Part shown: piece by piece, positions 1 through 63,916 of the stretch
Position numbering within the stretch: the stretch's first letter is position 1
How the letters are laid out: each line of letters begins with the position of its first letter
Origin: a virus
Taxonomy: Duplodnaviria > Caudoviricetes
DNA: 64,000 nt
Reading direction: 5' to 3' (one strand)
IMG/VR virus record: IMGVR_UViG_3300031867_000003
Span: 96,001 to 160,000 of that record
The notes under the pieces: generated by a model
Databases searched by the model: none
Seen by the model: the letters and a program-made list of their open reading frames with translations, nothing else
Told to the model about the DNA's origin: nothing
Translations under genes and position numbers: made by a program

Positions 1-2439
1 ATAATCAATTTGTGTTTTATCTTTACGATAATATCTTATTTTATTAGCATAGTTTGCTGAACCTACAACCACTGTTCCTTTTGGTATATGACAATATGCA
101 AAACCATCTTCATCTGGATTTTCAGCATCTAATAAATTTCTATCTACTCTTGCCATAGTTATAGAATCCCATCCCTCAATGGGACAAATGTTGGAGTAAG
201 GTTCATAACTAGTCGCGGAACTACCAGATTCTAGCTGATAGTTATATAAAGCAAGAGAAGTAGTAGAACCATTCTTTATTACAAATAATCTAATATCTTT
301 TTCTTCTTCAATAGTAAAAGTTAATAAATTTGAATTTGCACTACTAACCATACCAGTATCATCATTTTTAGCAATTACATCCGCCGTTGTATTAACAGAA
401 AATGTATATGTTCCAGCTTTTAAATGAATAGATCCATTTGGGGTTGATGAAGACACGGTGCCACCAAAAACAATAGCTCCATTATTTTCTTCGAAATTAT
501 TTTGATCCAACAAATTCTTCCCACTTCCCCCAATCCACGGCTTATCATACCCATGGAGGTCTTGCTTCGGCAAAAACCATACCTTACATTCCTTCAAATC
601 CGCCGCCATATCCGTACCAAAGCTAATAATACTGTTTTTGGCGGTCACTGTATGCGGCGTCGCTGTAAAGATATTTTTCCTGGACTCTATTGGATCAAAC
701 ACCCCGATGTAATCATATTCGATTTCAATGCGGTCGGCATTGCTCCAGAAGTTGTTGTCGAACATGAGGGTACTTAGGGTGGTGGGGGAGAGTTGGTGAG
801 TAGTGTAAAAACTATCATTAATAAATGGATAGGCAATATAATGACCAGCATATTTTGTTTTAAACTCTTCCACGGTTGACACCGTACTATCATAAATATA
901 CATTGATGTCCCTTGAAATGTACCATCAGCAGTTGCAGTAGCATTTTCTAAACAATCGCATAATATCTCATTTGAAGCTTTAACACAGTATCCTTTTCCT
1001 GATACCCAATGTCTTAATAAAAAACGATGTAACCATGGCTCACCAGCACCAGAAGATTTTTCAATACTTGAAAATTCGCTCATATCTCGTCTTTCCCAAG
1101 TTTCCACCAATTCTCCGCTCACCAAATCTACATACCCACCATACACAGTCCCAACATCCTCGGACCAATCAATATCATAGCGGTTGACCGCGGGGCCGGT
1201 GACAAATTCGCCAGTTCCAGAATTGGTGTAGAATTGACCGGAGACCGCATCATACATTCCGGCGACTTTGTCAGATTTGCGGTAACAAGGGATAAGGTTA
1301 AATGCCAGATTTTCACCGTCATATAATGCAATTGAGTAACATTTGCAACCAAACATATGAGTTGAAGCACCGTCTGCAAAAAGTTGAACAGGTTTAGTTG
1401 ATTTAATACTGTTTGTATGCGTTGCTGTATATGTTTTGCCATTAACGACCATTGTTTTCTCGTTACTATCAAGATTATAGGTTGCTTCAAAATTATATTT
1501 TGTATCTACTGTGCTACTGTAAGCGTCCGTAGTCACATTAGTTTCACTCGATTGATACTCCCTAGAGTATCCAAAAAACTTGTATTGATAGATGCCAACA
1601 ACAAAACGTCCTGTTCTAGTATCCTGATTTCCAATCAAATCGCGTTCAGATGATATAGTCTTTGTTGTGAAATCAGCCAAAATCTTTATATTCTCTGTTT
1701 GCACATAATAGTTCGTATCTATATACTGCGTCCCTGTACTCTCCAAATATTCAACCTATTGATACTCCTTCGGCAATGAAAGGTTGGTTTTATAGGGAGT
1801 ATATTCGGTAGCTTCTGAGCCACGTTCAAGTTGAAGATTATAAATTCTATTTACAGCAGTTTTTGACGCATTCCCAAAGCAATTAAGAGATAGATTAATA
1901 CAGAAATCTTCTTCTGCCGTAAATGTTGTTGTAATATGACCGCTATCGTTACTAGCCTGTGGAATAGTCTTATATGAAGCTGTCCATGCCAAAGATGGTT
2001 TTCCAATAATACATGGTCTCCAATAATAATTTCCAATACCATTTATATAATCAAATGATAACGTATACGTACCAGGTGGAAGTAAATTGTCATAAACGAA
2101 TACGCCTATATCTCGTTGACCGGAAATAATAGTTCCAGATAATTCACCACTGGCAAAAATCATATCATTTGGTTCGGTTTTAACATTAGATGGATGATGA
2201 TAACTATTTATATTTGTTTCTAATAAATTCTTCCCACAATGATTTACCTCAACCCCAGTCCAACCGCTAATCGGCCGCACATTCTCAGGACTAGGAGTTC
2301 CGCTCCCTTCTTGCTTCGGACTAAAATATACCTTAAAACTACGTATTCTCTGGCTTCTGGGAGTGTAAAAATTCAAAAATTCCCCCGATAAAATCTTCGT
2401 TTTATCATTTGTCATAATTTCGTTCGTTACGTCTGCCAT
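1..2439 (-). CDS. Mosaic tail fibre / receptor-binding protein, partial (runs off the window)
   Basis: ORF 1756..2439 continues through TAG (LPKEYQ*VEYLESTGTQYIDT, a familiar phage fibre motif) and stays open to the window edge. Repeated modules GKNLL...QLExGSxATxYxPY. Confidence 0.8.
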
Positions 2440-2966
2440 GATGCCACACTCCCATAAGTTGCATTCTCAATGCTGATTGCGTATGTATAACCGGATTCAA
2501 TCACAAACCATTCGGGCATTTTGACAGTTGCGGGAAGAGTAAGAGTCGGAACAGTAGTACCGGCAGAAAATATTACTTCAGTGACACCTTCGCTTGGAGG
2601 AGTGAATGTTAACGAAGTAACCTCACCACATACATAGCGAGTGTTGGGGTTAGCTGTGATAGTAGGAGTAGTTCCCGTCACATTTATTTCAATACCGTCT
2701 TGGAAGCTATCGGCTACTACAGCTTTAACATCGGACTCGGTCTAATAACCGGCTCCGTTAGTTAACTGATTATTATTAGTAGGAATTGCCGCTTCAACTC
2801 TGTTAATCTCATCATCAACGTAAGTAGTAGTAGAATAACCGGCACCGTTTGTTAGTTGATTATTATTAGTGGGAATCGCCGCGTTAACTTCGGTAATTTC
2901 CCCATCTATATATTGTTTTGTTTTCTAAAGAGATGCTTGCAATTGATCTAATGTCGTAATTGCCAT
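2427..2966 (-). CDS. Small tail-fibre-associated protein (179 aa, TAG=Gln)
   Basis: ATG at 2966 with GAGGTG RBS; two in-frame TAGs; tandem IPTNNNQLTNGAGY repeats; joins ORF 2427..2681. Confidence 0.75.
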
Positions 2967-3004
2967 TATTATTCACCTCATTTCTTTAATAATTAATTAT
3001 ATAA

Positions 3005-3997
3005 TTAAGCTTTATATTTGTTGTACGATGTACGAAGAGTAGTGTCATCCAAACAAATATAAGCAGTAGTAGTATTAATATTGGAATGTCCCATAAGCTT
3101 TTGGATTTCATGAATATCCATACCGCGTTTAGATAAGTTCGTTGCAAATGTACGTCTCATGCGGTGAGGGTGTGCATTGTCCACGTTCGCACGTTTAGCA
3201 AGTTGGTTAAGAATAAACCTAACTCCGCCGGAATTTAACGGCTCATGATTGTGATTATAAAACAACATATTACCGGTTTCCGGGCGGTTATTCAGATAAT
3301 AACTCACGTATTTAACAGCCAAATCATTAGTATAAACCATTCGCTCCTTTGCACCTTTGCCGTGGCGAACATGAACGGAATAATCTATTAGATTAACATC
3401 GGTAGTTTTCATAGCAGTTAACTCCGATACCCTGATTCCGGTACTTAACAACATTTCAATTAACGCTCGTTCCTTCGCTGTTTTACATGCACACCGAAGA
3501 GCGTCAATTTCGACGTCGGAGAACGGTTTCTTGATTTCATCCGTATATTTTACCGGTTTAAGTTTGGCAATCGGATTCTTATCCAATATATCTTCATTAG
3601 TCATCCACTGGAAGAATGCGCTTAGATTTGCCCTGGTATTTTCAAGAGTGCGATTAGATACCTTTCTATCTTTCTCCATCGCTAGGAACATTCGTATATC
3701 ATAAATTCCCATCTCGGGAAACGGTTTATTAATTCTATCAGATAGTTTCTTTATGGTTCTGATATACTGATAGATAGTATTTTGGCTTTTACCTTCAATA
3801 ACTAGACAACCAATATAGCGGCTGATTAGCCTGGTATTAGTGTCATCGAGCGGAACAATTTCCGTGCAACGCTCAGTTACCTCATAGTCATTCAGTGTGA
3901 GAATAACCGTATCTGAAATAACCGATAGTTGCTCGGAAGTAAATAATCCGCATAATTTATTTTCAATTGTTTTAACTATTTCCATGCGATAATCCAT
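3005..3997 (-). CDS. Tyrosine recombinase (XerD/integrase family) embedded in the tail-fibre cluster
   Basis: STGIRVSE, GKGAKER, HPHRMRRTFAT and LMGHSNINTTTAY catalytic motifs; no internal TAG; AGGGAGG RBS. Confidence 0.92.
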   Translation of the reverse strand: MDYRMEIVKTIENKLCGLFTSEQLSVISDTVILTLNDYEVTERCTEIVPLDDTNTRLISRYIGCLVIEGKSQNTIYQYIRTIKKLSDRINKPFPEMGIYDIRMFLAMEKDRKVSNRTLENTRANLSAFFQWMTNEDILDKNPIAKLKPVKYTDEIKKPFSDVEIDALRCACKTAKERALIEMLLSTGIRVSELTAMKTTDVNLIDYSVHVRHGKGAKERMVYTNDLAVKYVSYYLNNRPETGNMLFYNHNHEPLNSGGVRFILNQLAKRANVDNAHPHRMRRTFATNLSKRGMDIHEIQKLMGHSNINTTTAYICLDDTTLRTSYNKYKA

Positions 3998-4036
3998 TGA
4001 CAACCCTCCCTATGCGTTTAATAATTAATCAATAGA

Positions 4037-4066
4037 ATTATAGCATAAGAAGGATTCTAATGTCAA
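4037..4066 (-). promoter_or_regulatory. Consensus sigma70/sigmaA promoter for the recombinase
   Basis: TTGACA-N18-TATAAT with extended -10 (TGcTATAAT), 40 nt upstream of the ATG. Confidence 0.8.
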
Positions 4067-6307: not shown

Positions 6308-8305
6308 TCATGAGAATACCTAATTCAACATTGTTGTTACAGAAGCATCGGTTGCTATGTCGGCATCCGTTAGGTAGCCGGTTAAATCAACTTTGGTGTC
6401 ACCAATCTATTCGAATTTATCTCCGGTGTAAATATATTCATAAAAGATATTATTAGTTGTGGCAATAGTAGCAGTACCAACTTGTGCTGTTCCGGTTATT
6501 GAATTGTTATCAATCCCTGTGTCGCCAATTGGCTTTGGCACAAGATAAATTACTCCAAGTTCGCCGGTTAATGTCGGGATGTAGGTAGTTGAATTATATT
6601 CACCGGGTTCGCAAACGTGATAGCGAGTGTTGACGAGATTATCTATTGCACTAGATATATCTGAGGACGTTGCGAAGCCTAACATAGTTTTGATGGCAGT
6701 CTTAGCTTCATCAGTATAGGTTCCTACGGCATTTGCGGATGCCGATTGAGTTGTATCACCGGCTGCTTTAGCTAAACCATAGAAAGTTGCAATATGCTAC
6801 CGAGCAGTATTAACTGCATATTTCGTATTATTGCCAAGCTTTAGAGAAAGATCTGTAGGATTAGTAGGCGATAGTACACCATTAGAATCAACATAAATCC
6901 CATTGGTAGAAACCACCTTTACTACCCCCGCTTTATTACCTGTAGCAATATCATCAAATGTCACATAATTACTCAAATCAATATCCAAAGTTCCAAGCCG
7001 TTCATACTTATCCGTAATCCAGATGTACTCATCAAAAACATCATTCGTCCCATGAGTGTGAGCAACCAGATAAATCACGCCTTTAGTTCCGGTAGCCGGG
7101 AGTTCAGTAACAACCTGGAATTCAAAACTGGTTATATCACTGATAGCGTCGGCGATTGCTGAGTCAATTCCTAACATAGATTGGATTGCGGTTTTTGCGG
7201 AATCGGTATATGTTCCGACAGCATTGGAAGATTGACTCTGTGTTGTGTCTCCAGCTGCTTTTGCGAGGCCGTAAAATACAGATTTATGTTGCTGTGACGG
7301 TACAATCGGTCTGAAATTATTAGTGCCATTATGGCAATCGTTATCTTCTGCTTTTACAACAGCAATAAATTCACTCCCACCAACTTCCAATCCGTATGCT
7401 CTATTTGTTTTTATAACACCTGCCGCATTGGTGCTAGAAATCGGAATATTAGCCACCTTGTTCTCAAGTATGCTCGTTCCGTTAACCTAAACATCATCAA
7501 CCTTACCAGCTTCACCAAATTCCCATGAAGTTACCTTGCCGTCGGAAACCGTCTTTGGCATCATAGCTTTACCGACATCAGTAGCAGTAGCGGTACCATA
7601 CTGGAGAGTATCTTCTTTAGTAGCTAATCCATTGGTAAGTTCTGTAGTAGTAGCATAAGAAGAATCATTCTATAGCTAACTAACCTTAGTCGGAATACTT
7701 GCTTCAAGAGTATCAAGTTCTCCGTCAACGTACTATTTGGTAGCATAATCACTATCATTCTGTAGTTGACTGGTTTTGGTCGGAATCGCCGATTCAACGC
7801 CAGAAATTTCGTCATCAACATAACCTTTGGTTGTGTAGTCACTATCATTGGTCAAATCACTTGTCTTAGTCGGAATAGTGCCGGAAAGTTCCTCAAGCGC
7901 TTGAGTCATTTCTTGGGCAAGTTGATTATCTGCGTTATCAAATTCTTGTCTAATTGCAGTAGCAGTTTGAGATAACGACTAGTTAACCTCGGCAATCGCA
8001 TCACCGGTTGCTTTGGCATCAGCGGATTGTCCGGAGTTTGTCAGTGTTGCATCCACAAGTGGGATAGCAATGTTGACATTCTTTTGGTCAATAGCTTGCG
8101 CATTGCCATTGACCTGGATTGATTCTATTATGTTCTCCTAGGCACCGGATTCGATTGATTCCAATTTAGCCACATCGGCATCCGAATAGTTGTTATCGGA
8201 CAATGACTTCCCGGGTTCTTTGTCAACCTTTGTGGCTAATTTCTCCTTCATGTAGGTAACCAGAGTACGTACTCCGTCAAAAGAAAGAAATTTTGGTTTT
8301 GCCAT
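6308..8305 (-). CDS. Fibre-like virion protein (665 aa, TAG=Gln)
   Basis: ATG 8305 with RBS; KVDKEPGKSLSDNNYSDADVAKLESIESGA*ENIIESIQVNG motif; IPTKTSQLQND repeats; same frame as ORFs 6797..7456 and 6407..6685; ends TGA. Confidence 0.8.
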
Positions 8306-11812: not shown

Positions 11813-14800
11813 TTAATTAAATACAAAATCCAAACAACCCAGTGTTTTGTTCATTATAAGGCTGCACGATCCATCAATATTAGTACCACTTGTTCCGATG
11901 GATACCTCGCCGTTAAATGCAGCATTGCCGGCATTATCAACAGAAGCAACCGTTGCACCTGCCGTATTATTTTTTAATATCCAACCGCGATTATCCGCTC
12001 CGCTCATATAACTATAAATTGCCCAATCGCCTTGAACGTGACCATGTTTGCCACCATTAGATGTTTGTCTCATTGCAATACCATAAGCAGTAGGAGCGGT
12101 ACCATATAGTGCTATTCCTCCGGCGGCGCCGGAATTTCCGGAATTTGCCGCTATATAACTGCTTGTCGCAAAACTCGTCCCCGTAACCGCTCCGGTAAAT
12201 TCTCCGCCGGTTTTAGGAACGGCATAATTACTATAATTACTATTGTCGAGCAATATTTTCCAAGCATTCCAGTTAGCAGTATCGGATGAACCGGAATCAT
12301 TCTGTCTCCATTGAAGGACACCATTGTTGGCAATAAGCTGCCATTTATCATTGCTGCTTCCGACTTGAAGACCGACCCAGTCAAGTCCAGCCCATGGAGT
12401 CCCACTTCCGGCAAATGAGAACGTACCGGCTGTGTTGTTAATGGTTGTTGCATCAACGACATGATTAGCTAAGTAATCGGCATTTGTTGCTTTTGTCGCA
12501 GACGTAGCTGTAGTAGCAGTAGTAGCATTCCCCGTTACGTCGCCGACTAAATTTGTCGCATAAATATTTGACCATTTTTTAGATGAAGTTCCTAAATCAT
12601 AAGTATTATCTGTATTCGGAGTGATTGACCGATGAATGGGATCATCAATTCCTCTTGACATATGCGTCATTCTTGTACCTATACCACCATAATTAACAAT
12701 ACCAATTTGTGCAATTCTATTCTATGCATTAATAGCCCATCCACTTAATACAATCCTTATTCTATTAAAACCGGTAACAGATGTTCCACTTGCATTGGTA
12801 GAATTATGAGAGAATCTGACCATCCAGTGACCAAATACATTATTGGTAATCGATCCTTTCTATACGTAAGCCGACTCTGTTGCAGAATTATATACCAAGA
12901 ACTATATATTTTTTGCTCTCCAATTAGCAGATCCGAAATCTATATAGAATGTATTGCTATAAGTATAAGTCTACGGGCATGTGATATCAATAACCGTTGT
13001 TTCTGTTTGTGGACGATTAATTCCGACATATGTTGGGCTACCATCAAACGCATTGGTCAAATTAATAGAAATAGGCGTTTTATCGATTGATAACGGGGTA
13101 AATGACGTTGCCGTGGTCGAATACATCTCATATGAACCGCCTCGTTCATCAAGATATGCTAAATCATTAAATAAAAACGGCAATATAACACTCTCGGTAT
13201 CTTCCGGCTATAAGCTCAAATATGTTGTTTTTTCCGGTACGCCGTTATTAAAATAAACCGGTGTTCCCCATGAGCCGGCACTTGTACTTAACTTCGTCGC
13301 GGTTGTGGCGGTGGTTGCAGTAGTAGCATTGCCTGATATATTAATACCCCAAGTCCCGGTTGCCCCGGTGCCGTCAAGTTTAGGAGCATAAGTATTATAG
13401 TTATGGGAATCTAACAAATATTGCCATTCGCCCCAGTCAGAAGAATTTGCAACACCATCAATAGTGGCGCTTGCAGCACCTCTAATCATAGCTTGTGGTG
13501 TTTTTGTGTGCTATACATAAAACTGTGATCCCCATCCACCATTGTCCCAACCAAATGTCAAAATACATCCGTCTCCAGCCGGCGGTTTATGAGTTGTCAT
13601 AGAGGATGATGCAAGAGCAAATGTCACCTTACTTAACTAAGTGCTATTCTATATATCGGCAGAAGCAAGTCTACCAAGTGACGTTATTTTTTTTGTGGTA
13701 GTCGCTACACTCCATCCAGCTTGTGAACTTGCTGTACCGGTTGTATCGCCGGTAAGCGTAACCGCCTACGCACTCGCAAACTTTGTGGCTGTCCCGGCAT
13801 TACCGGTAATAGTAGTTATGCTCGGTAATGTTAGTTTATTAGTTCCCGTTGCGGTAATATGACCATTGATATCATATGTTACGGTTGGTACCGTAAAACT
13901 TCCGCCGTTAGTTAATGTGGTATTGTTTGCCGTACCTTGTGCAGTTCCGCCGGCAGTAAGTTGGTTCGTATGTTTGATGGTGGCTATACCACTTGAAATA
14001 GTAACATTAATACCGCCATTAGTAGCACCACGAATAGTATCGGCACCGACAGTACCAATGTCTGATACGGTAATTGAATCAAGCTTAGCTTTGTCTTCTT
14101 TACTCATCCAACCATTTGCTCCGTCGGTTGCGCAATCCGAAATTTCTGCTTGAGTAAATGTTACTGCACCGTCCCATTTGACGGCGGTTTTCTTCGTCTT
14201 ACCGATGGTAAAATCACGTCCGGTAGTTAGAGAACCGGCAGTTCCGGCACTTCCGGTAACAGATATCCCCCAAGTACCGGATGCACCGGTACCGGCTTTT
14301 GTTACAGTATAATCAGTATAATTACCTGACGTTAAAAACTTATTCCAAGAACTCCAAGAATTTGAAGAACCATCGTAAAACCGTATCCATTTAGTTCCGT
14401 TAGATGCTAATTCTTGTGTTACATGACCACCGGCAGAAGCATAAGTTACCATGCCAAACTAGCGCCCAGCATTTGTATCCGGAGTAGTTTTTGAATTTGC
14501 TGGATTATTAGATACATTATTGCTTCCAAGGGCATAATAATACAACGTTTTTTGAACCGTACGATAATCATTCAAATCCTAATTAGTTAATGCCGTTGGA
14601 GTTATTGAAGTTGCTGCATCAGCATTTGTAGCAGAAGTAGCAGTCGCGGCATTGCCGGTAATACTGATTCCCCATGTACCGGTTGCACCAGTACCGGCTT
14701 TGGAAGGAGCGTAGATATTATAATTATTCGAGTCAAGTACAGTTAGCCAGGTTTCGTCCCATGAGGTACTATTATTACCTCGAATATATATATGAGGGGT

Positions 14801-17800: not shown

Positions 17801-18673
17801 AATTACGTACAAGTTATTGCCACCAATTCTAATACTGCCGATTGCCTTATCAACATCACTGAGTTTTGCATATGTAGAAGTAACTGTCTGTCGGAATGAA
17901 CTCGCGGTTTGCTCATTGGTAGTAACTGTATTTTTCAGAGTTTTGAATTCTTCGCCGTCTGCTTTGGTAGATAATTCAGATGATATATCGGAAACTGTCG
18001 AAGTAATCCCTGTAATATCCTATTCGGTTTGACTTACGCGACTTCTTATGTCGGCGCCGGTTGTACTGTCATATGCATTAATAGAAGAGCTAATATCGTC
18101 CTACCAGATTTTTTGCGTTATCTTTTTATTAATTTCGTCGGCAAGATTTATTAGTCCACTAATTGTAGAGCGGTGAACAGCGTCGGAATAAACCACGCTA
18201 CCGTCGCTCATCGTAAGTTCAACTCGCCCCCACAGATATTTATTCTCCGGGATTTCGTCAGGCTCCTCATATGACCATGAACCGCCGGTTACACTCGTTG
18301 AAGAGGTAGACACATACCATTGTTCCCGTTCGCGAGAAACAGTTGCGCCAGGGTCACCTTGGGTACCGTCCATACCCGATCTACTCACGTTATAAACAAT
18401 TGTAAATTGCCCATCGCTGTATATGGTGCGAGTTCTCGTCCACAACCATTCGCCCTCGGCAATAGTCGGTAATTCAGCGCTCCAACTACCCTGGGTGAGT
18501 ACCACGCCGTTTATGTCGGTAATAATATTGCCGTCTCCGTCCTTAAGCGGTGTTCCAGGTACAACCGTACCACTTGCGGATGTAGCATACTCAATTATTG
18601 AATCGACTACCGAATTCCCATCTTGTACATCAACCACAGACGTGGAACTCATTGCCAGTATTTTTGACATCAT
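11813..18673 (-). CDS. Large tail fibre / adhesin-like protein (about 2286 aa, TAG=Gln)
   Basis: Eight track ORFs share one frame and are separated by TAG at the joints checked; GTWGISITGNAATAT-type repeats; internal duplicated module. Confidence 0.8.
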
Positions 18674-48222: not shown

Positions 48223-48438
48223 TCAAACGGTCATAGAAAGCATTATATTGGCAATATCTCGCACACAATCTTTGCGACCAATATCTTTAACTATAGCTAT
48301 GGCTAAATATGTTTCCCAATAATCAACAAAATGTTCGTCATCTTCAGTAACATCATCGCATCCCCAACGTCGCACTACTTCATTAAACTTTTCACAAAAT
48401 TCCAATATATTTTTACATTCTTCCATAAACCGCCTCAT
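48223..48438 (-). CDS. Hypothetical protein
   Basis: ORF overlapping the recombinase stop (ATGA). Confidence 0.5.
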   Translation of the reverse strand: MRRFMEECKNILEFCEKFNEVVRRWGCDDVTEDDEHFVDYWETYLAIAIVKDIGRKDCVRDIANIMLSMTV

Positions 48439-49439
48439 TGTATTCCAAACATCTCATTTATTTTATCTTCGGTTTCATCCTTAAAATAGCCGGAAGTGGT
48501 AGTCAAATCAGAATGATGAGCAAATGCCTGGATTTGATCTAACTCAAATACCTTATTATTGCCATTTTCATCTTTAAGCCGGTCATCCCAACCTTTTTTC
48601 AACGCTTGGAGTCGGGAATGGCGACAACTATGAGGAAAAATATTTACTTCCTCTCCGCGAACTTCAGATAATATTTTACTAATACTAACAATCCTGTCAT
48701 AAAGAGCTCCACAGTCAACTTCAGAAGCCGTTTCCCCATGTCCCTTAATCCACAAGGAATCTATTCCGTCATCTCCGCGCCATTCCAAATATTGCCTAAT
48801 TAATTCCCTGGTGTCATTTAAATAAATAAGAGGAAACTGCTTTCCTCGCTTTCCTCTGACTATATTGGTTTTATTGCCTTCAAGAAGACCGTCTTTTTTA
48901 ACTTGATAAACCTCATTGCGTCTCGCTCCAGAATCATACATCAATGACCACAACACAGCATCTTGCAGTCTACCACGTTCAAGAAGAATATCTCGTGTTT
49001 TTACAAACTCTTCATATGTAAAGAAGAAATCATCATCATTGGTTTTGACCTTTTCATTCGGAACTCCGCGAACCTTTTTACTATAATTGATTTCATAATC
49101 ATAATCGTCATCTTCTTCGCAAAAAGTCAACATTGAGTTAATAGAAGAGTGGAGACGATTGCATCTTGCCGGCGACATTCCGGAATCGTCAAACCATATA
49201 TTTAAACGTCTAAAATCTTTCTTTGTCATCTCAAGCACTGATTTATTATCAAAGTCCTCTAATATTTTAATAAATATTAATTTCAAATCATATCTGTAAG
49301 CATTAATGGTGTTAGGACTTTTTTTCTGCTGGCGAAGTTCCGTAAGGAAGTCTTCCATAATGGCTTTATTTTCTGGATTAACCTTGGCCCATTTTTCATC
49401 GGTATATATTCTATTATAAACTCCTCGGCTTCTAGCCAT
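48435..49439 (-). CDS. Tyrosine recombinase (phage integrase family) within the tail module
   Basis: DSGARRNE, GKRGK, FPHSCRHSR and AHHSDLTTTSGY motifs; no TAG. Confidence 0.9.
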   Translation of the reverse strand: MARSRGVYNRIYTDEKWAKVNPENKAIMEDFLTELRQQKKSPNTINAYRYDLKLIFIKILEDFDNKSVLEMTKKDFRRLNIWFDDSGMSPARCNRLHSSINSMLTFCEEDDDYDYEINYSKKVRGVPNEKVKTNDDDFFFTYEEFVKTRDILLERGRLQDAVLWSLMYDSGARRNEVYQVKKDGLLEGNKTNIVRGKRGKQFPLIYLNDTRELIRQYLEWRGDDGIDSLWIKGHGETASEVDCGALYDRIVSISKILSEVRGEEVNIFPHSCRHSRLQALKKGWDDRLKDENGNNKVFELDQIQAFAHHSDLTTTSGYFKDETEDKINEMFGIQ

Positions 49440-51008: not shown

Positions 51009-51755
51009 TTAATCAGCCACTTTTCGTTCAATCATAACGATGTAGTGTTTCGTCACCCGCTTGAGCAACGAGTTGGATGATACCTCATCCTCCATCAGCA
51101 TGGAGGGCCATGCCTTTGGCTCGCGCTGCGAGCAGATAATACAGCTCCTTGACAATTCATTCCGTTTTTCCAGGATGTCATACAGAGCCTTGACTTCATC
51201 ATCCTCTGTGATTGGGTGCAGAAGAAAGTCGTCCAGGATCACAAGATCAAGGTTAATGATCGCCTTTACCTTCTTCTGATACTGCTTGAATTCGATTTTT
51301 CTGGCCGCGGCAAGCTCACTTACGAGTTCATCGCAATGATAGTAACCTACACGATATTCCCGGCATGCTTCGGCACCAAGCGCTCTCGCAAGATAGGTCT
51401 TTCCGCTATCAGAAGCCCCGAAGATACAAAGGTTCATGCCTTCCCGTACAAAATCCAACGACGAAAGCGTATGGACGATATCCAACGGTTGGTACTGGCG
51501 CTCTTTGGAATCAACACACTGGTCAAGACAGCTGTCACTTCCTTTCAGTTTTGCCTTCTTCAGACGCGATGTATAGCGGTTTGTAATCGTTACGATATAT
51601 TCGGCGTGAATGATAGTACTGATCAACTCCAGACGTCCTGTATTAACAAAGGCCGGCTGCTTATAAAGTGTTTCAAGCTCTGCGGCCATATGCGGCAGTT
51701 TCAGTTCATCCAGCTCCTCCAGGATTGACTTCAGCTCCTTTGCTCCTGTATTCAT
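51009..51755 (-). CDS. istB: IS21 helper ATPase IstB
   Basis: Walker A GASDSGKT, Walker B LVILDDF; overlaps the istA stop. Confidence 0.93.
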   Translation of the reverse strand: MNTGAKELKSILEELDELKLPHMAAELETLYKQPAFVNTGRLELISTIIHAEYIVTITNRYTSRLKKAKLKGSDSCLDQCVDSKERQYQPLDIVHTLSSLDFVREGMNLCIFGASDSGKTYLARALGAEACREYRVGYYHCDELVSELAAARKIEFKQYQKKVKAIINLDLVILDDFLLHPITEDDEVKALYDILEKRNELSRSCIICSQREPKAWPSMLMEDEVSSNSLLKRVTKHYIVMIERKVAD

Positions 51756-53368
51756 TGCTGCGCCTCCTTTCCGGACTGATCCGCGAGGGTACGGCTGCGA
51801 TTCAGCAGTTTTTCCATGTCGGAGTAACTGCTGTCCATGATGTAGGAGCCTTCGTTCCGCTTTTTATTCTTATCGGTGTTGTAACCTTCAGAGCCAAGTT
51901 CTTCGGCTACCGCGCCAATGGTGGTTTTGATATAGGTGTAGGTCGTCCTCTCAGCAGCGAGAGCGCGCCTGCAACATTCCTCCAGGGCAGAGCGGCTGTA
52001 CTTCTTTGTGAAGCCAAGAACGCCCACACAGAGCCTGTAGGTCTGAACTTCCAGCTTCCGGCTCTTCAGGATCCGCTTAATTACTTCCGTAGTGTTGCTG
52101 CCAACTGTGGATGCTTTCCGGATAAAGTAGGTGCTGTTCCATTCCGAAAAATCCTCGTAGTTTTTCGGCAGACGGCTGGAGTCTGTTTTCCATTCGCCTC
52201 TGTAGGTTGCCCGTGGCCATTCGATAATCAGTTCGCCTTCGAGACTGAAGATCTTGACAACGGAGGCAGTTGCACGAATGATGACTTTTTTGTGCAGATA
52301 CGCTTTGTCTACGCTATAATAAGCATTGTCAAAGCGGATGTGGAAGTCGCTTGACACCTTTGCCGTGGCCCTCTCCATGTAATGGTACTGCGTGGAGGGG
52401 AGCGGCATCAGCTCTTCCTTTTCTTCTGCCCAATAGTAGGAGCGGCAATGCTCCTTCTTCTTAAACGGAGCGTCATTCAGCTCATCCAGCTTCTCCCAGA
52501 GGTCTTCATTGAACTGCTCAAGCGAGAAATATCTGCGTTCTTCCAGTTCATGGAAGAACCCTTTCTCGAGAATGCCAACCGCGTTTTCCACAGAAGATTT
52601 GAAACGGGGTTTCCGGACCTTGGCGGGAAGAATCACGGTGTGGTTGTGCTCCGCCCATTCTGCGTAGTCCTGATTCAGTTCCGGCTGTATCCAGTCCTTG
52701 TTTGCGATCACGGCCTGTTTGCAGTTATCGCAAACGACGATAGCGGGAACGCCGCCAAAAGCCTTCAACGCGTTGTTATTGACCTCGATCCACTGCATCT
52801 CCTTTGTGGATTCCATACCCTCAGCGTAGATGTACTGGGAATACGGAAGGATAGCAACAAATACGACGATCGGTGTGATCTCGCCGGTAAGACGGTTGAT
52901 CAGATCAAATGTCTTGCCTGCAAAGTCGACTTCCATCGTCTGGGCGATCACGGCTGTAAAGTGTGCTGTTTCGTAGTTTTCCTCGCACCACTTGCCGAAG
53001 AGCTCACAGAACTGCCGGTACTGGTATGGTTTCTTCTCCTCGGCATTGCAGCGCTTGACATACCGGTCCCAGCACACCTGAAGCGTCATGTTCTTTCTTT
53101 CGTTCATGAGCTTCAGAACCTTCGGGTAGTCGGGGTACTCGTAGCTTTCATCTCGACCGCCTTCGCCCGGCACTTTGCCATACACCTTCATGGCAATTCC
53201 GGCGTTTGTGATCCCGGGCGGGAGTGGGAAGTCCAGATCTTCGCACTTTTCGAATGCGTGGATAAACTTCTGTATCCCGGATTTGCTCATACCGGTTTGC
53301 CGGCTGATTTCTCTCACCGACAACTTGATCACGAAGTATTTGTTGAGAATGTCTCTGTAGTCTAGCAT
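51752..53368 (-). CDS. istA: IS21 transposase IstA
   Basis: N-terminal HTH, MEVDFAG, VCDNCK, PRFKSSVENAV (DDE), FDNAYYSV. Confidence 0.95.
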   Translation of the reverse strand: MLDYRDILNKYFVIKLSVREISRQTGMSKSGIQKFIHAFEKCEDLDFPLPPGITNAGIAMKVYGKVPGEGGRDESYEYPDYPKVLKLMNERKNMTLQVCWDRYVKRCNAEEKKPYQYRQFCELFGKWCEENYETAHFTAVIAQTMEVDFAGKTFDLINRLTGEITPIVVFVAILPYSQYIYAEGMESTKEMQWIEVNNNALKAFGGVPAIVVCDNCKQAVIANKDWIQPELNQDYAEWAEHNHTVILPAKVRKPRFKSSVENAVGILEKGFFHELEERRYFSLEQFNEDLWEKLDELNDAPFKKKEHCRSYYWAEEKEELMPLPSTQYHYMERATAKVSSDFHIRFDNAYYSVDKAYLHKKVIIRATASVVKIFSLEGELIIEWPRATYRGEWKTDSSRLPKNYEDFSEWNSTYFIRKASTVGSNTTEVIKRILKSRKLEVQTYRLCVGVLGFTKKYSRSALEECCRRALAAERTTYTYIKTTIGAVAEELGSEGYNTDKNKKRNEGSYIMDSSYSDMEKLLNRSRTLADQSGKEAQQ

Positions 53369-53703: not shown

Positions 53704-54837
53704 TTATTTCCTTTTAATTCCTTTATTATTTATTAGTTTTAAATTATCAATAACATAGTCAATGTCTGATTGTGTCGTTTCATAATCTAGTGAAAATCGA
53801 ATAGAAGCGTTTGCATCATCATCCGATAAACCGATCGCTTTCAGCACGTATGACGGTTCATCGGAATCTGAATTACATGCGGATCCGGTAGAAACATAAA
53901 TTCCACTCATATCTAACATTCGCAGTATCTGTTCTCCTCGACATCCCTTAAAACACACATTTAAATTTCCCGGTAATCGATTATTAAAATCTCCATTAAT
54001 AACTACGTTGTCGAATTCCTCTAAAAGCTTATTAGCAAAATAATTCCTTAAATAAAGAATGTTTGCCGTATCTTTTGAATTATTTAAATTCACAATTATA
54101 TCAGCAATGCAACCAAAACCAACAATTGCCGGCACATTTTCAGTGCCAGAACGCTTGCCAAATTCTTGTCCTCCACCATAAATAAGTGGTGATATATCTA
54201 TCCCGTTTTTCACATATAGGAATCCTATTCCTTTCGGACCATGAACTTTATGAGCACTTACACTCATCATGTCAATATTAAGTTTATTTACATCAATGGG
54301 AATATGACCATATGCCTGAACCGCGTCGGTGTGGAAGATTATATTATTTTGATGAGCAATTTCTCCAATTTCTCTTATTGGCTGAATAGTACCGATTTCA
54401 TTATTGGCACTCATTATAGATATTAGTTTTGTGTTAGGAGTTATGGCATTTTCTACATCTTTAGGATTGACTATTCCACCATTATCAACCCCTATATATG
54501 TTACGTTAACACCTTTTTTCTCAAGTGCCCAGCACTTATTTAAAATAGCATGATGCTCTATTACACTAGTTATTAAATGATCGCCAGGTTCGAGAATACT
54601 CAATGCCCAGTTATCACTTTCTGTACCCCCGAACGTAAAATATATTTCTTCGGGAAAACAACTAATTGTTTTTGATAAATTCTCCCTAGAAACATTTACA
54701 AGTTCTTTAGCTGCATTTCCGACCATATGAGTAGAAGAGGGATTACCATAATATCTAGAATATACACTGTACATTTCCTCTATTACTCCTTGATATGGTT
54801 TTGTTGTAGCCGCGTTATCTAAATATACTTCTCGCAT
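53704..54837 (-). CDS. iscS: Cysteine desulfurase (IscS/NifS family, PLP-dependent)
   Basis: YLDNAATT, GNPSS, HTDAVQ, SAHKVHGPKGIG, RSGTENV and STGSAC motifs; AAGGAG RBS before MREVY. Confidence 0.92.
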   Translation of the reverse strand: MREVYLDNAATTKPYQGVIEEMYSVYSRYYGNPSSTHMVGNAAKELVNVSRENLSKTISCFPEEIYFTFGGTESDNWALSILEPGDHLITSVIEHHAILNKCWALEKKGVNVTYIGVDNGGIVNPKDVENAITPNTKLISIMSANNEIGTIQPIREIGEIAHQNNIIFHTDAVQAYGHIPIDVNKLNIDMMSVSAHKVHGPKGIGFLYVKNGIDISPLIYGGGQEFGKRSGTENVPAIVGFGCIADIIVNLNNSKDTANILYLRNYFANKLLEEFDNVVINGDFNNRLPGNLNVCFKGCRGEQILRMLDMSGIYVSTGSACNSDSDEPSYVLKAIGLSDDDANASIRFSLDYETTQSDIDYVIDNLKLINNKGIKRK

Positions 54838-54847
54838 AGTATTCTCC

Positions 54848-55084
54848 TTACGTAAGTTCATGCTTACACCATAAATCAAAATATTTCTTGCTCTGCTCCC
54901 GATTAAAAATAAAACATAATATCGGGTCTCCTGTGTTAAAATCCACGCTTATATACAAATCAAGAAGTTCACATCCATGTTTTAAATATAAAGTGGCTTG
55001 TCTTACATTAACTATGCGGACGCCGTCCTATGGATAATAATCTTTTCCCGTTATATCTGAATGAATATCATTAATGTCTCTCAT
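54848..55084 (-). CDS. Hypothetical protein (78 aa, one TAG)
   Basis: AAAGG RBS; MRDINDIHSDITGKDYYP*DGVRIVN...FDLWCKHELT; missed by the ORF track. Confidence 0.7.
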
Positions 55085-55879: not shown

Positions 55880-57098
55880 TTATTCGTCTTCCTCGTCATC
55901 TTCAACAACATAGATGCTATAAAGTCTCTTATCAGCGTCGCAGTAAGAAACCTGAAGCTGTCCATTAAAGTCGATAGTTTGGTTGTCGGAACTCAGTGAC
56001 ACTTCGCTTTCCGGCGATACCTGGAAGGACGGAATGTCGATATATGCTGCACGAAGTGTATCTGCGGAGCAAGGATCGACACAAAGAACCTTGAGAATAA
56101 GACGGATAGTTCCCGGGAACTTATCAGCTTTATTAATCATCTCAACAGCACCAGCTGTTGCGGCTGTGCCGTCAAGTTCACGATCATAACGAATCATGTA
56201 CTGAGTATAATCGTTGCTAAGCGGAAGAGTAAGAACTCCCGTCCCATCATCATAAGTAAACGTAGAAGCTGTAGCACTACCACCAGTCTGGAATGCAGTA
56301 CCAAGAGTACCGTTGTTCTCCATGCCATATACCTTCGGAGTGCCGGTTACATATTTAAGAGTAACTGTCGGACCATTAGATGCCTTAGCAATTGTGATAC
56401 CAGGTGCGGTAATTTTATGATTTGCAGTAGCCTCAATTTTACCGGAACCCGCTTCAGAACCAAGAATATTAAGATTAATGAAAGCGTTAGTTGCGGTAAA
56501 CTCACCAGTTTTTGCTCTCCAGAAACGTTTCACGAGGTTGCCGTCTTTATCGGTAACATCATTAGATTCTGCGGTAATATTAAGAGTAGCTTCCTAAAGC
56601 TAGGTGAGTGTATAGAGAACGTTGCCGTCAAAGTCTTCAGCAGTTGCGACCTGGATACGGTCAATAATCAAATCCTAGTTTTCTTAAAAAGAAAAATGTT
56701 CACATGGGGTCGCTAGTCCCATGTAGTTCTCAAATGAACTTCTTATTGTTTCCAATAAGTACAGACTATATCTTATTCTACAGCATTACCTGTTTAGACC
56801 TAACCATTTCGAGAGTCAATAGCTTACTCCCTACTTTCTCTTATGAGAAATAGTCGTTGAACCTTACCTTACGGTCTTGGCTGCTGATTGCCCATTGTTA
56901 ACGGTACTTAGGATTTAACCATATACCATATAGTAATTTTTTTCTACTTTCGTAGCTCTCACGTATATATCTATTAGATATTGCGTTGTAGCTTCACTAT
57001 CTTTAGGGGTTCCCAGCAATTAGATTAGTTATTATAATTATGACATATACATATTTCTATATATGCTGACTAGATTATTAATCAAGCTTGAATGCCAT
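55880..57098 (-). CDS. Major tail tube protein (270 aa after splicing; exons 57098-57081 and 56674-55880)
   Basis: AAAGGAG RBS; spliced MAFKLD-DLIIDRIQVATAEDFDGNVLYTLT*L*EATLNITAES...; position after neck genes; followed by a GC-rich hairpin. Confidence 0.8.
56675..57080 (-). ncRNA. Group I intron in the tail tube gene (406 nt, ORF-less)
   Basis: P1 UGAU/UA..UAGUCA; core AAUUGCUGGGAA, AAUCAGCAGCC, GGUUCAACGACUA, GAUAUAGUCUG; terminal G. Confidence 0.9.
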
Positions 57099-57964: not shown

Positions 57965-57965
57965 A

Positions 57966-58532: not shown

Positions 58533-58545
58533 AACTCATACCTCC

Positions 58546-61282
58546 TTACAACGCAATGATTTCAATTGGCAACGAAGCAATTATATCTTCGCCGTCAACT
58601 TTATATGTTACAGTAAGTATTTTGCCGATATACGAATCGTCTCCCAAGAACTTAACCTTAACATGATTATCTATTACAGATAACGTCAGCAATTCTTGTG
58701 GAACAGAATTCCCGTCTATAGAAAATTCCCAAGTACCGGGAAGTGTATCTATCGACGTACCGTCTTCGTCGGCAAATACCACGGTGAATGTTTTGGCAGA
58801 GCCGCCTATACGAATCTGCTGTTTACCTGAGCATGTAATTGTAGTAGTGGTAGTGGGAGTTGGGATAATATCATCTACCGGAACAGCCGGAGTAGGTTCT
58901 ACTTCACTAGCTTTCCAATCCGCCCACCAAGCAACTACATTGCCATCAACATCATAATCAGCTTTAAGTGTATGTTGATTAGCAAGATCTTGCGCACAAG
59001 TAAAAATCGCAATTCCTTTAGAATTTGAACGATTTATTTTACTAATCTAAAATACGCGAGGTTCTGTTAATACGTTGGCATCTATCACCAAGTAAGTGTT
59101 ATAATATAAATGTTCCGTATCACGATTTAACGGAAGACAGAACTAGGTCTAGTCTTCTGGTTGCTAAAATTTATACATATACGTTACTTTATCAAGTCGT
59201 TAATTTGATAAAGAATTATTTAATTCATTTAAAAAAGCCAAATACTTAGAATGTTTTCTTTCTAAATATCTATTCGCATCATAGTATAACCAATCCATGA
59301 TTTTTATTACATTCTTTTTGCTTAATGTTTGAAGAACGGATGTAATATCATTTTCCTCTGGATGAGCGAGTTGAAGACTTAAATTTACACCTAATTTATT
59401 TTGAAATATTTTATTAACACTATTACAAAAATCAAATGTAGATATTATCTTAAATCCACACCTTAAAAGCCCATTATCTTGAAACGTATAAAAACTTCCG
59501 TCCCCGTCAAAATAACCCCTTATAAAATGTGAATGTAAAAAATCTGGAATGTCTGGGAACGTCAACATCAAACTTTTGTTTTGAACCATTCCTTGCTCTA
59601 CTAAAGAATTTGATAAATGTTTACTTGATAGTTCTAAGCATATCTATGGTTTAACATTATCAGCTTTTATTAATCTATCTCCAATATACGAATCTCTTTT
59701 AATAATTTGTCGCAGTGGTCTATTAGATCCTATATCTTCACTAAATTTTTCTATTATTTCACGATCATCAATTTGTAAGTCTAAATGTATCGCATTCCTA
59801 GGAACATTATTACAACCATCCGCATACAATAATCCCAAGTAATATGCCTTATCTTGGGTATCTATTATATCAAAATACTCTTCATTTAATGAATATTTTC
59901 TACGACCAGGATTCTTTATTCCTAGATTAATAAATAATTCAGATATAAATCTCTAGCTAACATTATTTTCTTCAGATAATTTTTTAATAGATTTCCCAGA
60001 CTTATATTCATCGATATGGTTATCAATATTCTCCAAAAACAATTTTCTATTGTATTTTGCATCTTTATTATACATATAATTAATCCTCCTTCAAAAGATA
60101 TAATGTATGCTATAATAAAAACAGTAATTTTTATGTTGAAGGCATAAAAAAACGGTTTGCAACCCGCTGTCCTGTTTTTATTCAAAATGATTAAATAATT
60201 TTTCTTATACTTTCATATAAGATCGGACTATATCTTTAACCGCAATTGCGGTTACTTCCCACTGGACTTACTTGAGCCACTTAGTCTCTGAACTTTACCC
60301 TCATCAAGTCTTAGCTGCTGATTATCCAATATAATATATTTTTTGACTATCACGCTTAGATGTATCTCATTATTACGTTGTAGTTATACTATCTCTAAGG
60401 AAGTTCCAGCAATTCAAGAAGTTTTCATCGTATTATTACTAATACGTGCGACTATTTCTAATCGAGCCATAATCCACTCATTATGTTATCATAAGGCTTT
60501 TTATCCTTATCTCTTACTGTCGCCAGTAAGATCAGCATATGTTTTCTCCATATCATTAACTTGACTTAGGAGTCGGACACTCGTGGGAATATTATATTTA
60601 TTCAATTCCTATGCGTTACAATACTTCGCAGCCTTTCGCTATCTGCGAAGTTATCTCGGCGTTGTCTACGAGAGAGTTCCACCGATTTTGCCCGATTTTC
60701 ACTCATAAGTTTCCTTATAAGGCAACAATTTTTATTGTAAGAATTTTGGCTCCTGCTGACCCCAGGGAACTCATAATATTTCCCATCTTTAATCCAGCGG
60801 AACACTTCGTCACAACGAAGTACTTCCCAAGTCGGAAACATATTTTCATCCCGGTCAGCTGTAGCAACCACTAACCATCTACGGTATATGTCATCTTCTC
60901 CCTTTAGCCAAACATAAAGACCAACTGGATATCTAGCTCTATACCGCTTACCAAACACTTCTTCGTAATAATCAACACCGCACTCATGACCTGGTCTAAA
61001 CTAAATATGCATAGTCTATTCATCTTTTTGAAATGTCTTAGAACTATGTGCAATAAATTTCACATCTATAGGGGTTGGATTTGTATCCTCTTCCGGGTTA
61101 AATCCTTCAAGACGAAGTCTATTCTGCGGCGCGGTATGGTAGTAATCGAAGAAATATCCAACCTAATACTAAACATCCTATGCAAACGTAGCATCCATGA
61201 TTACATCACTTTGCTACTTCCTCGCCCTCCCCGGTACACTAATATTATTGTGCATTGCCTAAAAATCTCTGTAGGTAATCAT
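58546..61282 (-). CDS. Putative head-closure/neck protein (398 aa after splicing; exons 61282-60734, 60478-60461, 59175-58546)
   Basis: Spliced GVSRSQNSYN-SGLWLD-YKF*QPED*T*FCLPLNRDTE; many TAGs; exon lengths 549+18+630. Confidence 0.78.
59200..60075 (-). CDS. Intron-encoded double-motif LAGLIDADG homing endonuclease (291 aa, two TAG=Gln)
   Basis: KAYYLGLLYADG and FIRGYFDGDG motifs in one frame; AAGGAGG RBS. Confidence 0.88.
60085..60182 (-). promoter_or_regulatory. Structured leader RNA (three-way junction with anti-RBS loop) before the LAGLIDADG ORF
   Basis: Outer stem AAUAAAAACAG/CUGUUUUUAUU, hairpin GCGG-GUUGCAAA-CCGU, hairpin UUUUUAUG-CCUUCAA-CAUAAAAA; loop is complementary to UUGAAGG of the RBS. 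Confidence 0.65.
60479..60733 (-). ncRNA. Compact group I intron (255 nt, ORF-less, different subtype)
   Basis: P1 CAAU/AA-AAA-UUGUUG; core AAAUCGGUGGAA, AACGCCGAG, GUAACGCAUA, CAUAUGCUG; terminal G before SGLWLD. Confidence 0.82.
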
Positions 61283-61283
61283 A

Positions 61284-62077: not shown

Positions 62078-62092
62078 GGGATACCTCCTTTA

Positions 62093-62776
62093 TTAGATAA
62101 ACTCTTTAATTCCGGTACCCAGAATATTGTCAATAATGACGAGTTTCTGCAAAGACGGATAGTTTTCATTGCGAATCATATCCATTGCGGTATATTTAAT
62201 AACTTCCTTGAATGTATTAGATGCTTCACTTAGCATTTTTTCAAATTCACTGTCGGATTTATCAAAAAACTCTTCCGGATAGTTAACGCCAAGGTATCTC
62301 TGATAAATAGCACCAATATCATGTTTCCACTGTTCACAAATATCAGGGTCTTCAATCATAATCATTCCATCGGTAATAACCGGTTTCTGTCTCCATGACT
62401 GAAGATCCCTATATGTAACATATTCTAAATCGCCAAAATTAGGCCATTTGTATGTTACAATCTTATCAAGCCCAACAGTTTCAAGATACCATGGGACAAT
62501 ACTTCTACATGGAATTAAATCGTCAGGTGCAAATTTCTTTATCTCTTTATTAGGGATAATTTTTTCTCGTTTTTTCGCCGGAGCCAACTTCGTTTCTATA
62601 AGTTCTTTACCGGCGACTGTTTTTGACTGAGTAGAAAAATAAGAAGTAGATTTTTCAATCATCTCGTCAGTTACGTTTTGCATATGACTAGAAACTTTAA
62701 AACCTTGAGATTTTAAATAATCTATAACATCCTTGTTTTTTACTCCAAGTTTTTTGGACAATTCGTTAACAATCAT
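62093..62776 (-). CDS. Post-capsid protein with an N-terminal IF2-N-like domain
   Basis: MIVNELSKKLGVKNKDVIDYLKSQGFKVSSHMQNVTDE resembles the N-terminal domain of translation initiation factor 2. Confidence 0.65.
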   Translation of the reverse strand: MIVNELSKKLGVKNKDVIDYLKSQGFKVSSHMQNVTDEMIEKSTSYFSTQSKTVAGKELIETKLAPAKKREKIIPNKEIKKFAPDDLIPCRSIVPWYLETVGLDKIVTYKWPNFGDLEYVTYRDLQSWRQKPVITDGMIMIEDPDICEQWKHDIGAIYQRYLGVNYPEEFFDKSDSEFEKMLSEASNTFKEVIKYTAMDMIRNENYPSLQKLVIIDNILGTGIKEFI

Positions 62777-62809
62777 CTTTATTCTCCTTGTAATCCTATA
62801 TAGTCCTTA

Positions 62810-63916
62810 TTACTGATTATCCTCGATTACACCGAAGAGCTCATCAATAACAACACCGATGCCTTCATGATACCAGATTTCAGTATCCATAGTACGATCC
62901 TGATAAAACAAACCATCTTCACCGCGGCTTGCTACTTCTACGTCACCTTCGTTAACTCTTTTAATTGGCTTAAAAGAATCATCAATCGGAATAATAAAGA
63001 TTTTCTTATTATCATTGGCAGTAAAGATAGAAGTGCGCGTCCCCTCTTCGTTTACACGATCAAGAACAAGACATTCATAACCTTCCCACATTCCAAGCAT
63101 ACCTTTAGTATGACGTTCGGTTTTCATTTCATTTGACCACATGGAATACGGAACAGTATTCTGAAGTTTCTGCATAGCAACACGAGTACCAACGAGCATT
63201 ACATCTTTACCCGTAACAGCCTTAACTGCTTCAATTTTATCAATAATAGAATCTTTACTTGCTTCAACAATAGCAATGCTAGACTTCATATCAGCCGGAA
63301 GATAGGTATCAAGACTCATAAACGCGGTATAAAGAGCAGAGTAACGATGTTTTTCAATACTTGTATACATAAGATTAATCATCTCCGCAAAGTCAACTTT
63401 GCCAAGCATAAATAATTCATAGTCTGTATATACTTTAATTACATACGGTGATGTATCAATGCTAAATGCCTTCCCAGGAAGAACTTTCTGACGCACTACA
63501 TCATGATGATTTCCAGCCCATTTACTAACCTGAAGAAGGGCATTCGAATTCACATAAAACTGATTAATATCACCACGAGCAATATTAACATCCTCAACGA
63601 GATCCATAAAACGAGCGTTACTAGAATCCCATCCAGAAACCATTTTATCCGCAAGGGTGTTCTCAATTACCGAACAAATTTCAATACCGTGAGCTCTCCA
63701 GGCCTATCTACGCTGCATACGGGTTGCGTTTTTAAAATCGATACCTGTAATTTTATTAAACTGATTACGGATAATCTCACTTGTTTCAGATTTAGAATAC
63801 TTATTATAAATATTATTTGAAGCGTCCATCATAAGATCGTTAAAAACAAGCATATTTTCATAATTGTTATCAAAATTAGCAACAACATTTGCACTAAAAC
63901 ATGTAATATCTCTCAT
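62810..63916 (-). CDS. Major capsid protein (368 aa, one TAG at 63704-63706)
   Basis: AAAGGAGG RBS; ORFs 63704..63916 and 62810..63643 joined in frame (RMQRR*AWRAHGIEICSVIE); size and synteny. Confidence 0.75.

Follow-up and report, generated by a model that had tools for sequence, protein, structure and literature searches.

The late genes in one stretch of a tailed-phage genome are interrupted again and again by in-frame TAG codons, and the question that the locus raises is how these codons are read, and by which tRNA. The stretch, here called the window, comprises 64,000 nucleotides (nt), bases 96,001-160,000 of the single virus contig IMGVR_UViG_3300031867_000003 (202,175 bp), for which CheckV gives a completeness of 100%. 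Nearly all of its genes lie on the minus strand. Very probably, the window is the core of a late minus-strand arm encoding the virion, in which UAG stands for glutamine, with a tRNA(CUA) that is split by a probable group I intron as the likely decoder. The glutamine reading had been put forward in a preliminary description of the window.

Under code 11 the window breaks up into short open reading frames (ORFs), and a greedy ORF tiling covers 0.653 of it. Reading through TAG raises the coverage to 0.938, compared with control values of 0.716 for TGA and 0.804 for TAA, so that re-prediction gives a large gain in coding density that is specific to TAG. Outside the window, the gain from reading through TAG is small, and does not exceed the artefact seen with TAA. 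Of 98 minus-strand code-11 fragments, 64 end in TAG. This supports the earlier claim that consecutive ORF fragments lie in the same frame and are separated by TAG, which is correct in general, but several of the breaks are due to group I introns and not to TAG alone. With TAG read through, three minus-strand frames reach 2,286, 2,284 and 2,497 amino acids (aa), holding 22, 55 and 57 TAGs but no TAA or TGA. Given that the base composition predicts a TAA or TGA about every 21 codons, frames that stay open for 2,286, 2,310 and 2,499 codons are far beyond chance.

The starts and ends of genes follow the same pattern. A motif resembling a ribosome-binding site (RBS) accompanies 9 of the 68 fragments that come after an in-frame TAG vs 18 of the 30 that come after TAA or TGA, and it is present at 24 of 31 starts when genes are modelled with TAG as glutamine. 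All 30 of these models that have a 3' end of their own close with TAA (19) or TGA (11), in agreement with the preliminary description, where genes with an RBS were said to end only in these two codons; the remaining model of the 31 is an exon of the tape-measure gene and ends at a splice site. The 110 ORFs of the plus arm terminate in TAA (63), TGA (43) or TAG (4), and two of the four ending in TAG stay open for more than 150 codons past it. As a terminator, TAG is almost absent from the entire genome. It interrupts otherwise intact, conserved frames, which close with TAA or TGA only.

Three independent comparisons agree that the encoded residue is glutamine. The first uses a related phage (IMGVR_UViG_3300021387_001709, 189,811 bp), which aligns over ~62% of the genome and provides 40,296 aligned codons at 81% amino-acid identity. 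In this relative, the partners of TAG are TAG (109), Gln (62), Glu (21), Lys (13) and Ser (11). When log-likelihoods are calculated with substitution rows derived empirically from this alignment, the best assignment is Gln, which is ahead of Glu, the next in rank, by 413 units and of Ser by 475. The second comparison concerns the large tail protein (21264-24899), with 19 TAGs and 111 homologues of less than 60% identity. As anticipated, residues opposite TAG are enriched for Gln, the commonest residue at these sites (18% vs a background of 3.7%, and vs 26% at CAA/CAG control sites); TAG site 84 is Gln in 107 of the 111 homologues and TAG site 1016 in all 111. The third is internal to the window, where TAG stands opposite CAA or CAG in 4 of 8 cases among paralogous repeats. 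All four repeat examples given earlier were recovered within a few bases of their reported positions. Among the IPTK repeats, IPTKTS-CAA-CTA-CAG-ND (7786-7754) pairs with IPTKVS-TAG-CTA-TAG-ND (7696-7664); in the duplication of the long fibre-like protein, SS-TAG-AGW (15031-15014) pairs with SS-CAA-AGW (13729-13712), and SA-CAG (~15067) aligns with SA-TAG (~13765). Sequence comparison thus supports the reading of UAG as glutamine (NCBI code 15) in the late arm.

At default settings, neither ARAGORN nor Rfam detects a CUA tRNA, whether in the window or genome-wide, the only tRNAs being those for Met, Gly, Gln(UUG) and Pro. Relaxing the ARAGORN thresholds produces dozens of false tRNAs, which were disregarded. 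The intron option of ARAGORN reports a tRNA(CUA) at genome c164685-165002 (L006 4885-5202), 4.7 kb past the right end of the window, flanked upstream by the portal gene and on the other side by the head genes, with an intrinsic terminator just before it. The tRNA is 87 nt long, and a 231-nt insert, probably a group I intron, separates U35 from A36. The last bases of exon 1 are ...GUAGUCUCU and the first of exon 2 are AAAACUAC...; once joined, the exons form an anticodon stem of 5 bp with the loop CU-CUA-AA, and the resulting 87 nt pass the default threshold of ARAGORN. The insert starts GAUGUUUUGGAG and its last base is G. A guide within the intron, GUUUUGGAG, pairs with exon 2 (AAAAC) and with exon 1 (CUCU), P1 being formed by GGAG with the exon CUCU, with a U.G pair at the splice site, and P10 by GUUUU with the 3' exon AAAAC. 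The decisive result comes from intron-less alleles of this tRNA(CUA), found in L020/L075 and L063, which are identical to the predicted spliced product save for one loop base and, as a comparison of sequences, confirm the predicted junction. L020 is itself TAG-recoded, with a 591-codon ORF containing 12 TAGs just upstream of the ORF in the portal position. Among 16 metagenome contigs that share a 21-mer of the T arm, 14 have a different sequence upstream and lack this tRNA. The tRNA carries U35, an unpaired A1.C72 and G73, a set of features that turns amber suppressors made from tRNA-Ser, -Asn and -Lys into glutamine inserters in E. coli (PMC9976931). At the same locus, the relative has a different, GC-rich tRNA(CUA) of 73 nt (L015 12935-13000; c112935-113000), followed by an ORF (down to L015 12150) that contains in-frame TAGs and resembles a GIY-YIG endonuclease in translation.

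Several other tRNA-like elements occur in the genome. A second intron-bearing tRNA, on the plus strand (L001 11553-11952), is tRNA-Leu(UAA)-like and has a group I-like intron of 314 nt (ARAGORN length) at the classical U34/A35 site; this intron resembles that of the tRNA(CUA), and the tRNA-Leu(UAA) of the relative is intron-less. A weak tRNA-like element with the loop AA-CUA-CU (genome c171243-171315; L006 11443-11515) is separated by 9 nt from tRNA-Pro(UGG). The relative has it too, with changes that keep the pairing, but it was not accepted as the decoder, having A33 and a poor acceptor stem and falling below the ARAGORN and Rfam thresholds. Two odd tRNA matches exceed the Rfam threshold (L001 12087-12168 and 14050-14141), one with an anticodon loop region of 17 nt and the other with a 25-nt insertion in the D loop. 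The sequence AATGCGTT upstream of the tRNA alleles was considered as a promoter and dropped, as its frequency in the genome is at chance level, and a scan for sigma-70 promoters performed no better than on shuffled sequence.

The recoded block is wider than the window, extending over genome 83-169 kb, where sense TAG is enriched ~12-fold. In alignments conserved with the relative, sense TAG reaches ~13 per 1000 codons on the minus strand at genome 80-168 kb, ~1 per 1000 in the plus arm and ~0 at 168-184 kb. To the right of the window the genes for the large terminase (11 TAGs) and the portal are recoded, and to the left those for a reverse transcriptase, an Avd-like protein and the endolysin (6 TAGs). 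Within the window, ~247 in-frame TAGs were counted, a few of them in stretches later shown to be intronic (leaving ~240). TAG accounts for ~31% (0.308) of the glutamine codons in recoded window genes, with usage graded among genes from 5 to 58%. Genes for structure, packaging and lysis are where sense TAG clusters, and those for the terminase, the endolysin and the tape measure rank among the richest in it. Two tyrosine recombinases, istA and istB of an IS21-type element, and a cysteine desulfurase-like gene have 47 CAA/CAG codons and no TAG, for which the joint probability, from a TAG share of 0.308, is ~3e-8. IstA has full-length matches of 89-98% identity to copies in the genomes of rumen and gut Lachnospiraceae, Butyrivibrio and Clostridia; these near-identical bacterial copies account for the standard code of the element and point to the host group.

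The recoded gene for the tape measure is a single ORF that spans 6,152 codons, contains ~135 TAGs and is interrupted by four group I introns (Table 1). It matches the family PF10145 at 34.3 bits (cut-off 33.2), matches to phrog_4211 and phrog_8892 are collinear across its exons, and it lies directly upstream of distal tail genes (24887-25738, then 21264-24899). The tail would be ~0.9 micrometres long if the whole 6,152-aa protein measures length, at 0.15 nm for each residue. Rfam group I introns in the window number five above threshold (61-85 bits) and two below, every one of them on the minus strand. None of the five that exceed the threshold (I1-I5) occurs in the relative, which has an uninterrupted ORF of 3,522 codons where this genome has three pieces, including across the I2 site. 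Comparison with the relative gives the exact insertion points of I1, I3 and I4, at each of which U is the last base of the upstream exon and G that of the intron; the extent of I5 is approximate. Exon joins were checked and are in frame for I1, I2 and I3, and the boundaries of I6, set by analogy, give the sole in-frame junction found. I5 carries a homing endonuclease ORF (59200-60075; phrog_4645, with a weak LAGLIDADG_3 match), itself with 2 TAGs. Homing endonuclease genes of phrog_4645/LAGLIDADG-like, HNH and GIY-YIG types are scattered in and around the late arm, most of them with 1-2 TAGs, so that their products would likewise have to await the code switch.

A number of observations weigh against the reading of the window as a glutamine-recoded arm served by the split tRNA(CUA). 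Nine of the 39 gene segments in the window have no TAG, so the description of the whole module as recoded is right for the capsid, tape measure, tail and fibres and does not extend to these segments; ~17 sense TAGs are found in the other arm. A full-length product from 135 TAGs needs ~99% read-through at each (0.99^135 = 0.26, compared with 0.95^135 = 0.001), from which it is inferred that competition by release factor 1 (RF1) would have to be nearly abolished. The intron of the tRNA(CUA) scores 29.7 bits against Rfam RF00028 (E 7e-6, local search), below the gathering score of 50, and was missed by Rfam in a search of 8.5 kb. The tRNA is itself atypical, with a 20-nt variable region, the T loop UGCAAGU and a D loop without GG. 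Bacterial seryl-tRNA synthetase recognises a long variable arm together with G73; since the long variable region would suggest serine, the glutamine assignment is based on the alignments, with no appeal to the tRNA's shape. The gene lies within the recoded arm, downstream of the terminase gene with its 11 TAGs. The close relative lacks this tRNA(CUA) gene, so that the decoder appears interchangeable and its role here is that of a candidate only. The genome scan suggested earlier yielded the CUA-anticodon tRNA, but neither a release factor (PF00472) nor a synthetase of the glutaminyl- or glutamyl-tRNA type (GlnRS/GluRS; PF00749) was found in the genome.

Other explanations of the TAGs fare less well. 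If they were assembly errors, or nonsense mutations in an element that is defective or in decay, the fragments would be pseudogenes, and under code 11 the region does look heavily fragmented. The frames, however, are interrupted by TAG alone and never by TAA or TGA over stretches of 2,000 codons; the relative, at 81% amino-acid identity, keeps 109 of the TAGs at the same sites and has glutamine codons opposite another 62. The fragments after TAG mostly lack RBS motifs, CheckV rates the genome as complete, and neither in-frame TAA/TGA or frameshifts at similar density nor unconserved TAG sites are seen, which makes this explanation almost negligible. That TAG is a sense codon for some other residue (Ser, Leu, Tyr, Glu through a non-discriminating GluRS without amidation, or pyrrolysine) is highly improbable. 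It would suit the class-II-like shape of the tRNA(CUA), with its long variable region and G73, the resemblance of its acceptor and T arms to those of the phage's own intron-containing tRNA-Leu(UAA), the rank of Glu as the second commonest amino-acid partner of TAG, and the label 'Pyl' that ARAGORN gives to CUA tRNAs. Against it stand the log-likelihood lead of Gln over Glu and Ser and the two TAG sites that are Gln columns in the homologues, and Tyr (12/302), Leu (8/302) and likewise Ser are minor partners of TAG. Charging with leucine requires A73, which is present in the phage's tRNA-Leu(UAA), whereas the tRNA(CUA) has G73.

Taking UAG as glutamine, the capsid, tape-measure, tail and fibre genes all contain TAG, and therefore their full-length products need suppression. 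In the proposed mechanism, the tRNA(CUA) would self-splice and then be charged with glutamine by host enzymes; the spliced, charged tRNA would out-compete RF1, and full-length capsid, tape-measure, tail, fibre, terminase and endolysin proteins would be made only when it is abundant. Genes that are host-derived or needed in uninfected or lysogenic cells (IS21, recombinases) would keep the standard code. A ribozyme-gated code switch, in which ~300 late amber codons go unread until the intron leaves the anticodon of the only good tRNA(CUA), is an unlikely extension; if true, guanosine- and Mg2+-dependent self-splicing would time virion assembly and lysis. The existence of intron-less alleles, and the gain or loss of introns between the two phages, mean that the tRNA intron may be merely selfish. 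It is a possibility of some weight that the glutamine recoding is real and there is no timing device at all, CAG having drifted to TAG once a suppressor had been acquired, with the TAG-free genes being recent standard-code imports and the tRNA intron selfish and non-regulatory. The near-identity of IstA to bacterial copies indicates such a recent import, a different tRNA serves the relative, the two phages differ in which introns they have, and TAG usage is graded, not all-or-none. On the other hand, those for the terminase, endolysin and tape measure rank here with the most TAG-rich genes, and Borges et al. report, across numerous phage clades, that recoding goes together with late and lysis genes and spares integrases.

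The recoding itself is of a known kind. Gut phages recoded to code 15 (TAG to Gln) were reportedly described by Ivanova et al. in 2014. Recoding of late genes from TAG to Gln in phages of standard-code hosts, with suppressor tRNAs and TAG-free integrases, is established (Borges et al., bioRxiv 10.1101/2021.08.26.457843); the preliminary description had named such recoding in gut phages of standard-code hosts as established. Proteomic proof exists for crAss-like phages (PMC9523058). Common to those phages and this one are glutamine-encoding TAGs in structural and lysis genes, a suppressor tRNA, TAG-free integrases and early genes that the host can read. The known code-15 phages infect standard-code hosts; here the host group is judged from homologues and IS21 copies. 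This phage differs from them in having a 202-kb siphophage-like genome, a capsid of Bacillus/Lactococcus type and a probable Lachnospiraceae host, as well as an intron-split suppressor tRNA, an ORF with ~135 TAGs, and no release factor or Gln/Glu synthetase detected. The crAss-like phages are podoviruses of Bacteroidota, are not known to have a tape measure, and combine stop-codon recoding with introns; in them, as in this phage, the recoded late region is overlaid with homing endonucleases and self-splicing introns, and no report of an intron within a suppressor tRNA was found in the literature on them.

Group I introns in the anticodon loops of bacterial tRNAs are known from the tRNA-Leu(UAA) of cyanobacteria and plastids and the tRNA-Ile of Azoarcus. 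Like these, the intron in the tRNA(CUA) is small, has no ORF, lies in the anticodon loop, forms P1 and P10 with the exons of the anticodon stem, and has the U.G pair and terminal G. It differs in interrupting an amber suppressor (CUA) at site 35/36 and in its low Rfam score, and its self-splicing is predicted. Theta ribozymes, which are hepatitis delta virus (HDV)-like, adjoin suppressor tRNAs in recoded gut phages (PMC10879173), and likewise couple a ribozyme to the maturation of a suppressor tRNA in such a phage; they are small, self-cleaving and process the end of the tRNA, unlike the predicted self-splicing intron here, which interrupts the anticodon. The searchable literature, coverage of which is incomplete, yielded no description of a suppressor tRNA with a group I intron inside it. 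Code 15 being known, the intron-split suppressor tRNA is what is new.

The recoding adds one lineage to those known, a large siphophage-like phage that probably infects rumen Lachnospiraceae. What goes beyond the known picture is a candidate suppressor tRNA that would have to lose its own probable group I intron before it has any anticodon, and a gene that demands ~135 successive suppression events plus the loss of four introns at the RNA level. The phage thus offers a natural test case for the efficiency that phage amber suppression can attain against host RF1, for which synthetase puts glutamine on an atypical CUA tRNA, and for whether self-splicing RNAs ride on late genes or time them. For annotation, code 11 yields ~100 meaningless fragments from this region, and tRNA scans without intron models can falsely report that a recoded phage has no suppressor tRNA.

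Table 1. Features of the recoded arm, in window coordinates unless a prefix (L006) is given; TAG counts are in-frame, and "relative" is the related phage used for comparison.
Feature	Position	Strand	Remarks
Core of TAG-recoded late (virion) arm	1..63916	-	~240 in-frame TAG
Tyrosine recombinase	3005..4003	-	no TAG
Fibre-like protein with IPTK repeats	6308..8305	-	9 TAG; holds the IPTK examples
Fibre-like protein (putative)	11813..18673	-	2,286 aa, internal duplication, 22 TAG; holds the SS-x-AGW examples
Tail protein	18752..21244	-	phrog_3267; 8 TAG
Large tail protein	21264..24899	-	phrog_6211 minor tail protein; 1,211 aa, 19 TAG
Tape-measure gene	join(45619..38246, 37891..37527, 37169..30285, 29962..27119, 26797..25807)	-
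Tape-measure exon 5	25807..26797	-	5 TAG; closes with a TAA/TGA stop
Group I intron I1	26798..27118	-	321 nt; Rfam 74.8 bits; absent from relative
Tape-measure exon 4	27119..29962	-	18 TAG
Group I intron I2	29963..30284	-	322 nt; Rfam 84.5 bits; boundaries by analogy, junction in frame
Tape-measure exon 3	30285..37169	-	~2,295 codons, 55 TAG
Group I intron I6	37170..37526	-	357 nt; Rfam 42.9 bits, below gathering threshold
Tape-measure exon 2	37527..37891	-
Group I intron I3	37892..38245	-	354 nt; absent from relative; 5' exon ends in U, intron ends in G
Tape-measure exon 1	38246..45619	-	2,458 codons, 56 TAG; C-terminal part matches PF10145, phrog_4211
Second tyrosine recombinase	48435..49439	-	no TAG
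IS21-type element	51009..53368	-	istA 51752-53368, istB 51009-51755; no TAG
Class V aminotransferase / cysteine desulfurase-like gene	53704..54879	-	no TAG; among virion genes
Group I intron I4	56675..57080	-	406 nt; absent from relative; just past start of structural gene continuing at 55880-56674
Group I intron I5	59165..60476	-	~1.3 kb, approximate boundaries; absent from relative
Homing endonuclease genes	59200-60075; L006 805-2373, 10134-11285, 16045-17403
Seventh group I intron match	60513..60744	-	33 bits, sub-threshold
Major capsid protein	62810..63916	-	1 TAG

The phage is tailed and siphophage-like. Homologues of its major capsid protein are found in the Bacillus phages Thrax3, Izhevsk and PBC2 and in large Lactococcus phages, and the one TAG of the capsid gene, near codon 91 by arithmetic, falls within the region that is conserved with the capsids of these large siphophages. 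The large tail protein has hundreds of full-length homologues, some of them annotated in genomes of Lachnospiraceae, Clostridiales and Robinsoniella, and several of its relatives carry PF06605. From such sequence matches, the host probably belongs to the rumen or gut Lachnospiraceae. When the DNA of the tail region was compared with deposited phages, nothing matched, and PDB sequence searches with three virion proteins returned nothing informative. The protein at 11813-18673 is a putative fibre by its label in the preliminary description and its position, and has no family match.

The two TAG-free tyrosine recombinases sit within the tail and fibre region, where they may serve integration or invert fibre segments, and the standard-code IS21 element is inserted in the late arm. 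The ORF at 53704-54879 was considered as a capsid candidate and rejected, being a class V aminotransferase; it may be an auxiliary metabolic gene, or be tied to tRNA thiolation. The first 100 bases of the genome recur at 201498-201597, 677 bases short of the contig end, while a match of 200 bases fails, and this may represent an imperfect terminal overlap or a repeat. The reverse transcriptase (7 TAGs) and Avd-like protein (L005 12594-14470; genome 91794-93670) adjoin the fibre genes, and the pair suggests a diversity-generating retroelement.

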